Origin: a virus
Lineage: Duplodnaviria > Caudoviricetes
Length of the DNA stretch: 47,889 bases
IMG/VR virus record: IMGVR_UViG_3300037419_000284
Location: 1-47,889 of that record
Direction: 5' to 3' (one strand)
Part shown: piece by piece, positions 32,052 through 45,775 of the stretch
Numbering within the stretch: the first letter of the stretch is position 1
How the letters are laid out: every line of letters begins with the position of its first letter
Position numbers and translations under genes: made by a program
The notes under the pieces: generated by a model
What the model saw: the letters and a program-made list of their open reading frames with translations, nothing else
What the model was told of the DNA's origin: nothing
The model's database searches: none

Positions 32052-32636
32052 ATGAAAGTAATCATAATCGAAGGTGCTCGTGGCACTGGAAAATCGACAG
32101 TAGCAAGAAAGATAAGAGAACAAATTTCTGAAATTACGCTAGTAAATCCAACAGGGTTTCATCTAGATGGAACAGAAGGTTTACGCAAGATTTCAACTTA
32201 TTACGATAAGTGGTTAGACCTTTTATGGTCTATGAAAAACGAAGATGTAACTTTTGTATTCGACAGGTTCTTCTTTTCTGAAATGGTCTTTTCTAAGTTG
32301 TATAAGAGTTATGATTTTTCAGAGCAATATGATGAACTATTATTTGACCTTAGGACACTACCATGCGATATAGAAATTATCTTTTTTACTATTGATGATG
32401 AAGAAGAACTAAAGAGTCGATTAGTAAGAGATAAAGTTCCATTTGGTAAAGCAGAAGAAACTGTTACAGAAACAACCAAGCAACAAGATGTTTACAAAGA
32501 TATTATGTCCGACATTTTTGCGGAATATACAAGTGATACATTCAAATTGAGTTATGTCGATACAACTCATAAAACACCTGAGCAAGTGCAAGAAGAAGTA
32601 TTCAAAATTATAAAAGGAGAGGAGAACGCAAAATGA
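32052..32636 (+). CDS. Nucleoside monophosphate (thymidylate-like) kinase
   Basis: IIIEGARGTGKST P-loop and FDRF motif. Confidence 0.75.
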   Translation: MKVIIIEGARGTGKSTVARKIREQISEITLVNPTGFHLDGTEGLRKISTYYDKWLDLLWSMKNEDVTFVFDRFFFSEMVFSKLYKSYDFSEQYDELLFDLRTLPCDIEIIFFTIDDEEELKSRLVRDKVPFGKAEETVTETTKQQDVYKDIMSDIFAEYTSDTFKLSYVDTTHKTPEQVQEEVFKIIKGEENAK

Positions 32637-33388
32637 AAATCGGTATCGTTTCTGACACACATGCAAATTCATTCGCTACAAAAGTAGTACTTGAACATAT
32701 GAAAAGTGTCGGAGTAAACAAGAAGGTTCATCTAGGTGATATTGTTGGTTATGGTCCGAGACCTAGCGAAACACTAGAACTCACGCTAGAGAATTTTAAT
32801 TACATAGTAAAAGGTAATCATGACTTTGCTTGTGAAAACGAAGAAAATAGTTGGGGGTTTAACCCTCAGGCAAAATCGTCTATTGATTGGACAAGAAATC
32901 AACTATCGGAAGAAGAAATTGAGGTGTTAGCCAATCTCCCATACGCACAAAGTATTGGTGAAGATATTATGTTCACACATGGTAGCCCTCATTCTCCATT
33001 CGATTATGTAATGGATATTAATGATGCAAAGTTAGGATTTACAAATGACCAGTTTAGAATTTGTTTCGTAGGTCATACTCATGTTCCTATGGTTTGGGGT
33101 GAAGGAGGATATATCCGCCCTACATATTCAAACAAAGAACTAAACAATTATGGTATGATTAGTGCCTTTGAAATTAGTATACCGAAAGAAGTAAGAGCAA
33201 TCGTAAATGTAGGCTCAGTTGGTCAATCTCGTGATAACGACAGTCGTGCTACATATGCTGTTTATGATACAGAGGAAGAAAAAGTAACAATCTACAAAGT
33301 ACCTTATTCAGTCGAAACAGTTGTTGGTCAAATGCAAAGAGCAGGATTTGAACAAAGTGCATGGCAACGATTAATATACGGTAGATAA
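32633..33388 (+). CDS. Calcineurin-like metallophosphoesterase
   Basis: SDTHAN, LGDIVGYG, GNHD, THGSP, GHTH, NVGSVGQ motifs. Confidence 0.9.
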   Translation: MKIGIVSDTHANSFATKVVLEHMKSVGVNKKVHLGDIVGYGPRPSETLELTLENFNYIVKGNHDFACENEENSWGFNPQAKSSIDWTRNQLSEEEIEVLANLPYAQSIGEDIMFTHGSPHSPFDYVMDINDAKLGFTNDQFRICFVGHTHVPMVWGEGGYIRPTYSNKELNNYGMISAFEISIPKEVRAIVNVGSVGQSRDNDSRATYAVYDTEEEKVTIYKVPYSVETVVGQMQRAGFEQSAWQRLIYGR

Positions 33389-33407
33389 TTTGAAAGGAGA
33401 AACCGAA

Positions 33408-33944
33408 ATGGATTTTAATAAGCCTAAGGTGGCTTGTCCAGTTTGCAACGGTAAAGGCGGATTTAGGAAGTTGAAACAAGACTTCCTAGATAGCAACTGG
33501 ATTGAATGTGCATACTGCGAAAGCTATGGTTTTGTAGATGATACTACAACTGTAGAAGAAGTAAGTAGCCACCTACTATACAACAGATATAAGACTAAGT
33601 TAACAGTTCAACTTGCAAAGCTAGGTGACGTTATTACATGCACATCAGAGCATGAAGGTCATGATATGTTCATTAGGTTCTTACCTTTCAATCGAGAGCC
33701 ATCCGATAGAAAGAAATGGACTACACTAATCAAACACTTACTTAAGTTCTCGCAAAACAGTGAGACAGTAAAGATTTATCCCAAGCAAGCATTTCATCCA
33801 ACCAACGAAGAATATGGTCAAGGATTTGCTATTGATTGGGAGTTACATATAACTACCCACGAACTACAAGACTTAGAGAGTCTAATAGAATTAATTAAGT
33901 TTTATAACGAGACAGTGAATGGAGGTCCGAAATATCTTGATTAA
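33408..33944 (+). CDS. Hypothetical protein with N-terminal DnaJ-type zinc finger
   Basis: CPVCNGKG..CAYCESYG; AAAGGAG RBS before ATG 33408. Confidence 0.6.
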   Translation: MDFNKPKVACPVCNGKGGFRKLKQDFLDSNWIECAYCESYGFVDDTTTVEEVSSHLLYNRYKTKLTVQLAKLGDVITCTSEHEGHDMFIRFLPFNREPSDRKKWTTLIKHLLKFSQNSETVKIYPKQAFHPTNEEYGQGFAIDWELHITTHELQDLESLIELIKFYNETVNGGPKYLD

Positions 33945-34707
33945 CATAGCACTAACATTCTTAGGAACTGGTAGTGCCTTCTCTAAAAGGTTCGGAAATA
34001 ACAGTGCGGTTTTGACAGTTGGAGACAAGAATTTACTCATAGATTGTGGTCGAACAACTCCTGACGACTTAGACAAGTCAGAGTTCAAATGGAGCGACAT
34101 TGATGCCATCTTTATAACTCACTTGCATGGAGACCATGTATACGGTTTAGAGGAGGCAGGATTTATGGGTCGATATGTTTTTCGACAAAAACCGCATATT
34201 ATTTTTCCTCACAAGAAGATTAAGGTAGACTTGTGGGAGAAGGTTCTCAAAGGTACAATGATGCAAGGCGACTTGGAAAGAAACATGACATTTGATGATT
34301 ACTTTACATATGAGATTGTTGATGATAGACAACAGTACTTTGAATTTAATGGTGTCATGATTTCAGTTTTTTCTACACAACATGTAACAAACAAAAAATC
34401 ATATGGACTGATTATCGGAGAGTTTGATTATATTGTTTATACATCAGATTCATTATTCGATAGCGAAATGATAACTGCTTTCCATCGAGGAGGAGCACAA
34501 AAGATATTCCACGATTGTCAAATGGTTGGTTATGACGGTCAAGTACATGCCTCGTTAGATGAACTAGCTACTTTACCCAAAAATATTCGTAAGGATATAG
34601 TTATCATGCACTACGGAGATGACCTAGAAAACCATTTTACTAAGGTTAAAGATTTACAATTAGGTATCGCATTACCAAGAATTACACAAACATTCGTAGT
34701 TAAGTAG
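33919..34707 (+). CDS. apyc1: MBL-fold hydrolase, Apyc1 (anti-Pycsar)-like
   Basis: GTGSAFSK.F.NNSA, LLIDCG, ITHLHGDH..GLEE, FHDCQ, VHASLDEL, MHYGD match my recollection of Bacillus phage Apyc1. Confidence 0.8.
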   Translation: MEVRNILINIALTFLGTGSAFSKRFGNNSAVLTVGDKNLLIDCGRTTPDDLDKSEFKWSDIDAIFITHLHGDHVYGLEEAGFMGRYVFRQKPHIIFPHKKIKVDLWEKVLKGTMMQGDLERNMTFDDYFTYEIVDDRQQYFEFNGVMISVFSTQHVTNKKSYGLIIGEFDYIVYTSDSLFDSEMITAFHRGGAQKIFHDCQMVGYDGQVHASLDELATLPKNIRKDIVIMHYGDDLENHFTKVKDLQLGIALPRITQTFVVK

Positions 34708-35702: not shown

Positions 35703-35731
35703 TTGACTTTTTAGTACAAGGGGTTTATAAT
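35703..35731 (+). promoter_or_regulatory. sigmaA-type promoter
   Basis: TTGACT-17 nt-TATAAT. Confidence 0.8.
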
Positions 35732-36170: not shown

Positions 36171-36669
36171 TTTATTTAGCCAAGCAGATGCCATGTATAA
36201 CGCATACATAGCTGAACAACTTCGCATAGCCTTTCCTGATTTAGAACTATACGTTCCTCAGGAAAATGAGGCTATCAATGACAAACAGGCATATGCTAAT
36301 TCATTAATGATTAGACGAGGTGACGATAAACCACTATTACTATCTGATTTTCTAGTAGCAGTAATAGACGGATGTGAAATCGACTCAGGTGTAGCTTGTG
36401 AGATAGGTAAGTTAGCAGGTTACGATATGGCTCGTCATGATTTACTAGGTCTACCATATAGACCAATCTTCGCTTTATTTACAGATGTTCGTCAACAAGG
36501 TAGAGATAATCGACAAAAGATTGAGGCACTTATTAAGAACTCAGTTGAGAATCAATTTCCCTACCGCAATTTGTATGTAATTGGAACTATCTACAACTCA
36601 AATGGAGATGTTGTTCCTAATGTTGCAGAATTAATTGATGCAATTCGTAAATATATTAGTAGCAATTAG
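36148..36669 (+). CDS. Nucleoside 2-deoxyribosyltransferase-family protein
   Basis: AYLAN.LF, YVPQEN, DFLVAVIDG..IDSGVACEIG. Confidence 0.8.
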   Translation: MKAYLANSLFSQADAMYNAYIAEQLRIAFPDLELYVPQENEAINDKQAYANSLMIRRGDDKPLLLSDFLVAVIDGCEIDSGVACEIGKLAGYDMARHDLLGLPYRPIFALFTDVRQQGRDNRQKIEALIKNSVENQFPYRNLYVIGTIYNSNGDVVPNVAELIDAIRKYISSN

Positions 36670-37059
36670 TTTTTGATTAGGAAAGTCGGAATTGGAGATA
36701 GTTCGGGACCGACATAGGCAGGTGATAGGGGTTAATTCCTGCTAGCCCCAAGGCGGGCAAATTGGAGAGTTGCTAGCCTCTCTAGGAAATACGCATGGGC
36801 GAAGGTAGCGGGTGCGTACAAGTCTCTTGATGGGTTTAGTGGAGACACAAAACAAACTACTCTCACAAAGCTACATTACCACGAATAACAATTAAGTTGG
36901 TGGTCACTATGCACAGTCAGAAATGTAGCACTACATTAAGTCCATGTTGATACTACAGACCGAGATGGCAAAGTAGAAAACGAATCATGGCAACGGTAAA
37001 GACTGGTCGGAATCACAAAGGAAGGGATAGGGGCTAAAGCTAAGTTCCTCCTTCTCACG
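36668..37059 (+). ncRNA. Large structured intergenic RNA with group I intron-like core features
   Basis: ORF-free, GC-richer than its flanks, at least seven helices; P7-like CAGACCG (36956-36962)/UGGUCG (37004-37009); terminal hairpin 37021-37054 then G37059. Confidence 0.6.
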
Positions 37060-37066
37060 TTTACCC

Positions 37067-37095
37067 TTGACTTTTGAGACAAGGCATGCTATAAT
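37067..37095 (+). promoter_or_regulatory. sigmaA-type extended -10 promoter for the RNA array and DUF2828-like gene
   Basis: TTGACT-17 nt-TATAAT with TG at 37087-37088. Confidence 0.85.
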
Positions 37096-37113
37096 ATATT
37101 TATAAGATAACGA

Positions 37114-37179
37114 GAGACACTAACAGCAACCCTACTACTTACACAATCAAATGGTGATTATTTTAGTATAAGGTGTCTC
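37114..37179 (+). ncRNA. ACAGCAA-motif RNA unit 1
   Basis: Closing stem GAGACAC/GTGTCTC, ACAGCAA at 37123-37129, inner TACTA/TAGTA helix and AATCA/TGATT hairpin. Confidence 0.7.
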
Positions 37180-37191
37180 GTTGAAAACGTA

Positions 37192-37289
37192 AAGGCTCAT
37201 ACAGCAAACCAAACAAGCTGACATTGGTTGTCAAACTTTCTGCTAAAAAGTCCTTAGTGGGTTCGATTCCCACCTAACTACTGAGCCTT
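37192..37289 (+). ncRNA. ACAGCAA-motif RNA unit 2, tRNA mimic
   Basis: Closing stem AAGGCTCA/TGAGCCTT, ACAGCAA at 37201-37207, D-like, anticodon-like (CT-GCT-AA) and T arms (GTGGG-TTCGATT-CCCAC), no acceptor stem. Confidence 0.75.
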
Positions 37290-37298
37290 GTAAACGTG

Positions 37299-37412
37299 TA
37301 GGCACACACAGCAAAACTACATATGTCTGTTCAAGAAGAACAAACTCACATTAAAAGATATGATGAATCTTTTTATCAGGAGAAATCCATTAGTAGCTAA
37401 AACTTGTGCCTA
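37299..37412 (+). ncRNA. ACAGCAA-motif RNA unit 3
   Basis: Closing stem TAGGCACA/TGTGCCTA, ACAGCAA at 37308-37314, CTAC/GTAG helix enclosing three hairpins, followed by a T-run. Confidence 0.7.
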
Positions 37413-37450
37413 GCTTTTTTTTATGTCCACTATGGAAAGGATGATGTTAA

Positions 37451-38950
37451 ATGTTAGAACACCTTAAAAATGCGACCAACGTAACTACTACAACTAATGG
37501 TGCTAAGGCACTAAAATCAACACAAAGCTATTTAGTAGACTTTTTCGCTTCCTCAGGAGCGTTGAGAAATCGTCCTAAATCTGATGCTTACCAACTGTTC
37601 TCTAAAGCATTTGCCGAAGATAAGTTGTTAGCTATGAAAGCCCTTTTCTACACTCGTGATATTCGTGGTGGATTAGGTGAGCGTGAAACATTCAAAACTA
37701 TTATCAAGCAACTAGCGTTTACTAACCCTGAGGCATTAGCAAGCAATATTAATCTAATCCCTTACTTCGGTAGATATGACGACTTACTAGTTTTACTTGA
37801 TACGCCTCTTGAAAAATTAGCTATGGCTATCATAAGAGCACAATTACTTGAAGATATGGACTTAGAAAATCCATCTCTATTAGCTAAGTGGTTGCCATCA
37901 GAAAACGCATCTTCTCGTGAGACTAAGCGTTTAGCTACAAGAGTAAGAACCAACTTAGGTTTATCATCTAAGCAATATCGTAAGACTCTATCAATGTTAC
38001 GCAAAAAAATCAACCTAGTTGAAACTAAGCTAACTGATAAGAAATACGAAGAAATTGAATACGATAAGATTCCTTCTAAAGCAGGTCTTGTATATCGTAA
38101 GGCTTTCTACCGTAATGACGAAGAAAGGTATACTGAGTTTGTAAATATAGTTACCAATCCAGTTATTGCGAAAGAAAGAGGAGTAAAGATTAACACTAAG
38201 ACACTATTCCCATACGAGATTGTCCATCAGTATTCATCTTATGCAACTACTCGTTATGGAACACACCTACATTGTTCTTTTAACACTAAGGTAGACCCAA
38301 CCCTAGAGGCTATGTGGAATAACTTACCTGACTATGTAGGAGATACCTTCGACAACGCATTAGCAGTAGTTGATACTTCCGCATCAATGCGTGGATTACC
38401 AATCGAGGTTGCTACTTCTTTAGGTCTTTACTTCGCTGAAAGAAACAAAGGAACATTCGCTAACCACTTCATTACCTTTAGTGCTGAACCTGAGTTACAA
38501 GAAGTTGTAGGTGCTACTTTAGGTGAGAAATTAGATAACATGTCCAAAGCTAAGTGGGACATGAACACAAATATCGAAAAGATGTTTGAGTTAGTCCTAA
38601 ATACTGCTATCGCAAATAATGTACCACAAGAAGAACTACCATCTAAGTTGTTTATCATCTCTGATATGCAATTTGACCGTTGCGTTAAAGGTGGAGGAAA
38701 TGTGACAGTGTTTGAAAACATGTTACAACGCTTTGCTAATGCAGGATATGTAATGCCTGAGTTAGTATTTTGGAATGTCAATGCTTTTGCAGGAAATCAC
38801 CCTGTTAAGTACGACCAAACAGGAACAGCATTAGTATCAGGTTGCTCACCATCTATCTTCAAGAACATTCTTGGAGGAAAAGATATGACACCATATGGTA
38901 TGATGCTAGAAGTGTTAAACTCAGAGCGTTATGACATTATAATCGCATAA
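37451..38950 (+). CDS. DUF2828-like protein: helical TROVE-like region plus C-terminal vWA domain (Ro60-like architecture)
   Basis: FYTRDIRGGLGER, LLAKWLPSE, MIDAS VVDTSASM, IISDMQFD, VFWNV. Confidence 0.85.
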   Translation: MLEHLKNATNVTTTTNGAKALKSTQSYLVDFFASSGALRNRPKSDAYQLFSKAFAEDKLLAMKALFYTRDIRGGLGERETFKTIIKQLAFTNPEALASNINLIPYFGRYDDLLVLLDTPLEKLAMAIIRAQLLEDMDLENPSLLAKWLPSENASSRETKRLATRVRTNLGLSSKQYRKTLSMLRKKINLVETKLTDKKYEEIEYDKIPSKAGLVYRKAFYRNDEERYTEFVNIVTNPVIAKERGVKINTKTLFPYEIVHQYSSYATTRYGTHLHCSFNTKVDPTLEAMWNNLPDYVGDTFDNALAVVDTSASMRGLPIEVATSLGLYFAERNKGTFANHFITFSAEPELQEVVGATLGEKLDNMSKAKWDMNTNIEKMFELVLNTAIANNVPQEELPSKLFIISDMQFDRCVKGGGNVTVFENMLQRFANAGYVMPELVFWNVNAFAGNHPVKYDQTGTALVSGCSPSIFKNILGGKDMTPYGMMLEVLNSERYDIIIA

Positions 38951-44253: not shown

Positions 44254-44325
44254 AGCAGTGAGGACAAACGGTAAGTTGCTAGGCTCATGCCCTAGAGATA
44301 GTAGGTTCAACTCCTACCACTGCAA
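44254..44325 (+). tRNA. tRNA-CAU, initiator-like (1:72 mismatch)
   Basis: Acceptor AGCAGTG/CACTGCA, loop CT-CAT-GC. Confidence 0.75.
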
Positions 44326-45698: not shown

Positions 45699-45775
45699 CT
45701 CCTGCTACCCAAGTAGACTAAGGGAACTGTCTGCAAAACAGTTATTCATGAGTGCAAATCTCATGCAGGAGTCCA
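45699..45775 (+). tRNA. tRNA-Cys(GCA)
   Basis: Loop CT-GCA-AA, U73, CCA encoded; T-loop reads TGCAAAT. Confidence 0.85.

Follow-up and report, generated by a model that had tools for sequence, protein, structure and literature searches.

The window, by which we mean the whole stretch of DNA analyzed here (47,889 nucleotides [nt]), is a 47.9-kb virus record containing terminase, portal, capsid, and integrase genes together with 24 tRNAs. The capsid protein shares 29% identity with its counterpart in Bacillus phage G, and the best cultured-phage matches of the DUF2828 protein are Bacillus phages; these similarities point to a Bacillota host, and the virus is probably a temperate soil phage of the Bacillota type. 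Between a nucleoside 2-deoxyribosyltransferase family gene (PF05014; 36148 to 36669, plus strand) and a promoter-like site at 37067 to 37095 (plus strand) lies a predicted noncoding RNA of approximately 390 nt (36673 to 37059, plus strand). The latter site, conserved in the two homologous loci described below, separately precedes a leader of ACAGCA-containing stems and a gene for a DUF2828/DUF7788 protein, likely Ro60-like (37451 to 38950, plus strand), which is the downstream neighbor of the RNA in all three full loci. The nearest promoter-like site upstream of the window RNA is of the sigma-A type (35703 to 35731, plus strand; TTGACT-17-TATAAT, 11/12); this copy has no promoter-like site of its own. 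The RNA lies outside the tRNA array, at a distance of approximately 7 kb. A tRNA at 44254 to 44325 was found by Rfam and missed by ARAGORN, and a tRNA-Cys at 45699 to 45775 was called by ARAGORN and missed by Rfam at the gathering score. A calcineurin-like phosphoesterase gene and an anti-Pycsar Apyc1 gene occupy positions 32633 to 34707, 2 to 4 kb upstream of the RNA. The tetranucleotides CCGG, CGCG, GATC, GCGC, and GGCC do not occur anywhere in the window, against 15 to 148 expected, and their complete absence points to strong restriction avoidance. Eleven of the 13 runs listed carry at least half of the words of the RNA region, all soil or rhizosphere, and the window may derive from any of 7 runs.

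Two full but diverged homologues of the RNA (approximately 310 to 340 nt; 59 to 68% identity) were found. Homologue H (L008:4919-5225, plus strand) was traced by a search with the neighboring proteins, which yielded one contig with both genes, while homologue G (L138:1500-1163, minus strand) was traced through relatives of the capsid protein, in two identical provirus records. Both are located behind promoter-like sites of their own (TTGAC(A/T)-17-TATAAT; TTGACA-17-TATAAT in H), and H stands alone between two such sites. In G, a short open reading frame follows the terminal hairpin, ahead of the next promoter-like site. The 2-deoxyribosyltransferase gene is not a fixed neighbor, as an extra open reading frame intervenes in H and the gene is missing from this place in G. 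The window RNA was also matched by models built from G alone. Run against 12 sources, such a model of the 5′ domain returned three matches, namely, G, the window (50 bits; E value of 1e-12), and H (42 bits; E value of 2e-10); a model of the 3′ domain matched the window (E value of 2e-5) and H (E value of 0.006), with one further weak match (E value of 0.59). Partial variants of the RNA were present in two runs, X12 and X13.

Beyond these copies, the searches yielded little. Neither the window RNA nor its homologues matched any Rfam family at the gathering score or at E values up to 10. Against cultured phages, BLAST searches with all three versions produced no real match, the plasmid search gave none, and two scans of genome contigs revealed no relative. 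Pattern scans of viral sequences recovered H as the sole homologue (1/1, 1/43, and 1/15 matches), and a metagenome scan returned 30 matches, none of which was a homologue on reading; a model run on 26 of them likewise gave no real match. One 16-bit model match, in phage PK-3, was rejected, as it overlaps the start of a coding sequence. Across 35 records, the RNA model gave strong matches in G001 and G024 only; as most of these records are fragmentary, absence of the RNA from the others cannot be concluded. Two records, G006 (71% complete) and G009 (76% complete), keep the DUF2828 gene and its ACAGCA-stem leader and contain no match to the RNA models. A full-text literature search found no description of the RNA, although supplementary motif lists could still hold the family.

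The RNA is predicted to be closed by an 8-bp helix (pair probability of 0.86 to 0.89) between its 5′ end (36673 to 36680) and a conserved YUGGU(U)CGG motif (37003 to 37010); these and the other parts of the RNA given here are on the plus strand. The 5′ end of G pairs with this 3′ motif too, but in a different register (0.89 to 0.98 for four pairs), and in H the closing helix is not favored. Two similar modules stand on either side of hairpin H3; in each, a GGAA(A) linker leads into a stem whose loop reads UGG..(Y)AG..GG(G), and a hairpin with the loop GGG(G)UU follows. In module 1, H1 (36685 to 36713) follows a conserved AGGAAA and carries UGG..UAG plus a 3′ GGG in its loop, and H2 (36718 to 36742) exposes a conserved GGGGUU loop and has no listed differences in X12 or X13. 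An optional small hairpin (36745 to 36758), missing from H and G and altered by five substitutions in X12, contains the CCCC of a UAGCCCC segment for which a switch between two pairing partners had been proposed. This switch can be written on paper, but the probabilities of its two pairings are 0.10 and 0.00, and we rejected it because it is not conserved. H3 (36764 to 36783) is a 6-bp helix (36764-69/36778-83) with a self-complementary loop, a candidate kissing loop. In module 2, H4 (36790 to 36818) follows GGAA(A) and has a loop of the form UGG..GGYAG..GG(G), similar to that of H1, and H5 (36822 to 36846) resembles H2, with a conserved UGGGUU loop. An A-rich linker with a conserved CUAC, a possible pseudoknot partner of a UAG loop, comes next (36847 to 36864), followed by an optional long hairpin (36870 to 36929) that is missing from H, G, and X12 and apparently shortened in X13. 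H6 (36942 to 36990; 36942-46 paired with 36986-90) has a pair probability of approximately 0.49, and a matching stem is folded by the homologues; it encloses a variable hairpin and an A-rich AAAC(G/A)AA strand. The terminal hairpin (37021 to 37054), with AGCUA in its loop, is present in H and G; it has no U tract, and no intrinsic terminator was found there.

All the helices listed in the preliminary description can form, most of them with ensemble pair probabilities of 0.6 to 0.99 in the window RNA: 0.97 for 36685-89/36709-13, 0.85 for 36718-22/36738-42, 0.6 to 0.7 for 36790-95/36813-18, 0.8 to 0.99 for 36878-82/36900-04, and 0.88 for 37021-25/37050-54. Two need qualification. Helix 36822-26/36842-46 has a probability of only 0.07, yet four of its five pairs are changed on both sides across the homologues, and the outer helix 36870-77/36922-29 is reasonably probable (approximately 0.6) but belongs to the optional long hairpin. 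The four helices spanning 36685-713, 36718-42, 36790-818, and 36822-46 and the terminal hairpin are common to the homologues, and the H3 helix, the H6 helix, and the 8-bp closing helix extend the original list.

The evidence for a conserved structure comes from covariation. As MAFFT alignments misregistered the stems, model-fitted alignments were used in their place, and pairs were counted in the 5′ domain. Of the 97 cells in this three-sequence alignment, 96.9% are paired, and both sides differ in 22 of the 33 pairs; these counts are inflated by the fitting of the alignment to the structure and come from three full sequences. By hairpin, both sides are changed in 6/6 aligned pairs of H1, 3/5 of H2, 4/7 of H3, 5/6 of H4, and 4/5 of H5. 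None of 500 shuffles equaled this pairing, and slid controls gave 2 to 9 pairs changed on both sides. Identity by column was lower in stems (0.38 to 0.55) than in unpaired columns (0.70 to 0.75), which is a signature of selection on RNA structure. G-U pairs occur in the stems, as do wobble changes on one side only, in keeping with an RNA, and no open reading frame is common to the three sequences. The folding energies were within the range of chance (z-scores against shuffles of −1.30 for the window and −0.63 and −1.32 for the homologues), and the evidence is therefore one of covariation and not of stability. A screen for long-range pairings common to all three copies gave many weak 4- to 5-bp options and no unique pseudoknot. 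The suggestion that a free-standing RNA is itself the likely product is supported by the covarying stems in all three copies, the lack of a shared open frame, and the dedicated promoter-like sites in H and G. We consider it very probable that the locus encodes a genuine structured RNA belonging to a new family distinct from group I.

Directly after the terminal hairpin, all three copies carry an ACGU motif (37057 to 37060 in the window, plus strand), a likely 3′ processing mark that also follows several of the leader units. It stands right after 5 of the 24 window tRNAs, against a background of 1.2%, and after 12 of the 16 tRNAs in G006; the corresponding counts in three other phage loci were only 2/27, 0/17, and 1/21. 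From this distribution, ACGU may be a clade-specific 3′ processing mark, and its position right after tRNA and noncoding RNA ends suggests a sequence-specific processing nuclease. Across the window, ACGT is rarer than expected (37 occurrences versus 91); as it is a DNA palindrome, restriction avoidance could also explain this depletion. The motif was noted at window positions 37057, 37187, 37294, 44127, 44328, 44936, 45345, 46023, 46190, and 46329 and also in the tRNA cluster of L156.

The RNA had been described as possessing a group I ribozyme-like core, and a bulged helix resembling P7, a hairpin with a U.G pair, and a terminal G can indeed be drawn, in the window copy alone. An AAGA-like joiner before P7 is part of the group I consensus, and here a bulged-A helix beside a G-C pair, formed by CAGACCG (36956 to 36962) and UGGUCG (37004 to 37009), follows an AAAGAC joiner. 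Such a bulged helix could be drawn in 776 of 1,000 dinucleotide shuffles, but helix and joiner together in only 45, and the helix is missing from the matching place in H, where the site of the 5′ strand reads CAAGCUA, and in G, where nothing similar exists; the resemblance is thus mildly unusual but not conserved. The pair probability of this P7 is approximately 0.00, forcing it costs 9 kcal/mol, and its 3′ strand is part of the conserved motif already taken by the predicted closing helix, while its 5′ strand falls within the variable hairpin of H6. Among the partial variants, three of the seven 5′-strand letters differ in X12, and X13 changes A36957 (to U) and G36962. Both retain GACC, and as bulged-U G-sites occur naturally in group I introns (PMC8395846), the A36957-to-U change alone does not exclude a G-site. 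The same source defines these introns by the U.G pair of P1, the G-site in P7, and a catalytic domain made up of P3, P7, and P8. Of the remaining elements, P8 cannot form, because the 41-nt segment separating the two putative P7 strands has no fold (0.0 kcal/mol), and the P3 candidates of only 5 to 6 bp are at chance level. The P1-like hairpin with U36667.G36675 has a probability of approximately 0.00, and H and G start at their own promoter-like sites with no exon. Although the arithmetic by which cis splicing would add Phe-Tyr-Pro to the upstream protein is correct, no gene is interrupted at the RNA. The G at 37059, proposed as a terminal intron G, does follow the terminal hairpin in all three copies, as part of the ACGU motif common to tRNA and leader ends, which would account for it. 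The Rfam covariance models of group I introns gave no match at the gathering score or at E values up to 10. The group I core reading is thus not supported: we take the RNA not to be a group I ribozyme, and an intron-derived element that splices, circularizes, or cleaves is very unlikely, so that the finding matters less than was first hoped. More improbable still is a degenerate RNase P RNA serving the tRNA array of the phage. An RNA of class B has a similar length, the related record G009 encodes a true one in its tRNA cluster, and the window RNA contains AGGAAAGUC and a CCAUG/CAUGG helix. Neither of these look-alike words is retained in H or G, however, and the RNA lacks a conserved P4 pseudoknot or CR motifs; the RNase P search that detects the G009 RNA at 238 bits matches neither the window nor the homologues, and the models of our RNA do not match the G009 RNase P. 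A tmRNA reading was rejected for want of an ARAGORN call, as was a CsrB-like GGA sponge, the GGA count being near chance as judged by eye.

The main rival to the scaffold reading set out below is a tandem aptamer or sponge, possible but doubtful in our view, in which the conserved UGG and GGGU loops of the two modules would capture tRNA 3′ CCA ends, a host protein, or a small ligand, possibly around a G-quadruplex of four loop G-tracts. Some aptamers typically show tandem pseudo-symmetry, and here two similar modules carry loops that are better conserved than their stems. In the window and G, the H1, H2, H4, and H5 loops all contain tracts of at least three G residues; H has three such loops, its H4 tract reading GGAGG, and no conserved C-run is left unpaired to pair with them. 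The anti-Pycsar gene 2 kb upstream also speaks for this reading. Nonetheless, the enrichment of G at invariant loop positions is not significant (27/66; P = 0.10), no Rfam aptamer matched at E values up to 10, and no fixed downstream gene hints at a ligand. An elaboration that we regard as quite unlikely is an RNA machine in which the four G-tracts form a G-quadruplex or similar core, the RNA dimerizes via its palindrome, and a host immune nucleotide signal or tRNA 3′ ends are soaked up; if true, it would be an RNA counterpart of the phage anti-defense sponge proteins. A role as a large Y-RNA-like partner tethering the neighboring Ro60-like DUF2828 protein is unlikely as well, if less so. Like the Y RNAs YrlA and phiLo Yrl1 and Yrl2, the RNA immediately precedes a Ro60-like gene encoded on the same strand, and its ends are predicted to pair. 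In all three loci, it is found approximately 0.4 to 1 kb from the DUF2828 gene, within the 4 kb used for YrlA RNAs and a Ro60 orthologue, with the kinship to Ro60 here coming from Atlas features only: the nearest named Atlas clusters of DUF2828 are TROVE/vWA_Ro60 (0.91 to 0.92), a lead that makes a Y-RNA role possible. Its 3′ GGU(U)CGG also resembles the Ro60-contacted GGUCCGA described in PMC4201824, which further gives a GNCGAAN0-1G motif near the 5′ end and a tRNA-like domain as features of YrlA-type Y RNAs. The motif is not present in the window, H, or G sequences as read, no YrlA or tRNA match covers the RNA, and the length of the RNA is about three times that of the Rfam YrlA model; a promoter-like site separates the RNA from the gene. 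Moreover, DUF2828 is not a Pfam TROVE member and has no sequence match to solved Ro60 structures (PDB), G006 and G009 retain the protein and its leader with no match to the RNA, and the ACAGCA units are better partners for the role. Somewhat less probable is that the sequence acts in cis, as an mRNA leader, an element for processing or stability, or a DNA element, and not as a trans-acting RNA. The short open reading frame downstream of the hairpin in G and the position of the window copy 3′ of an open reading frame, with no promoter of its own and no U-tract terminator, would suit such an element; the RNA is, however, kept while its upstream and downstream neighbors vary among the three loci, the H copy stands by itself between promoter-like sites, and the wobble changes in the stems fit an RNA.

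The RNA is best read as representing a new family of structured, free-standing phage RNAs in the mold of GOLLD and ROOL, and a dimerizing scaffold is the mechanism that we favor by analogy, at a probability of roughly 0.4. The conserved folded sequence would be transcribed as a discrete, stable noncoding RNA, likely trimmed at the ACGU mark as the tRNAs of the phage would be, and would then likely serve as a scaffold that assembles itself, two copies pairing through the palindromic H3 loop; it may play a role in the tRNA and RNA-maintenance arsenal of the phage. In support of this, the H3 loop is self-complementary in all three copies, reading GCUAGC in the window (36772 to 36777) and G and UAGCUA in H, with no change listed for X12 or X13. 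For the intermolecular kissing loops OLE L9.3 and GOLLD L21a, a comparable switch between loop palindromes was reported as evidence of pairing, and GOLLD and ROOL are described as phage RNAs, often located by tRNA islands, that form RNA-only cages (both in PMC12286853). The H3 palindromes share GCUA with a register shifted by one base, and the conserved GCUA could instead pair intramolecularly with a UAG(C/U) loop; several candidate partners of 4 to 5 bp exist, none of them unique. In H, moreover, part of the palindrome merely continues the stem. Like GOLLD, ROOL, and OLE, the RNA has multiple helices, occurs in a tRNA-rich phage, and has no assigned function. It differs from them in its lack of an Rfam family match, its tandem two-module layout, and its association with the DUF2828 locus instead of a place inside the tRNA array, and it is shorter than GOLLD (310 to 390 nt versus more than 800 for many GOLLD RNAs). 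Oligomerization via kissing loops is suggested here by the palindromic loop in the three sequences.

Large structured phage RNAs such as GOLLD and ROOL are few, and their function is an open question. The RNA described here is a compact, uncatalogued addition, available in three natural and highly diverged versions, and its palindrome-switching loop, four G-rich loops, and defined 3′ mark are distinctive handles. Its size suits cryo-electron microscopy, probing, and pull-downs.

Of the 12 loci examined, 9 have stem-closed (stem)-ACAGCA arrays of two to five units directly upstream of their DUF2828 genes, namely, the window (37109 to 37413), L008 (5280-5710), L138 (750-340, minus strand), L153, L154, L027 to L029, and L006; of the remaining loci, L001 contains two ACAGCA words (stems unchecked), L004 contains one, and L003 contains none. 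The cultured phages with such arrays include PK-3, vB_BcoS-136, and Tsamsa. A T-arm is present in one window unit (37257 to 37273), and one unit weakly matches the Dictyostelium Class I RNA (E value of 0.12). The units are candidate Y-RNA-like partners of the Ro60-like protein. Searches combining DUF2828, phage, and RNA gave no papers, and in the literature searched, we found neither these arrays before DUF2828 nor the ACGU end mark described.

Several further RNAs were observed in related tRNA clusters. The class B RNase P RNA of G009 is full (L157:4523-4900, minus strand); the tRNA cluster of the same record also contains a non-tRNA stretch of approximately 230 nt with no Rfam match (L154:2797-2560, minus strand), possibly another noncoding RNA. 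Inside the tRNA cluster of G006, a skipping-rope RNA was identified at L156:10536-10632 (62 bits).
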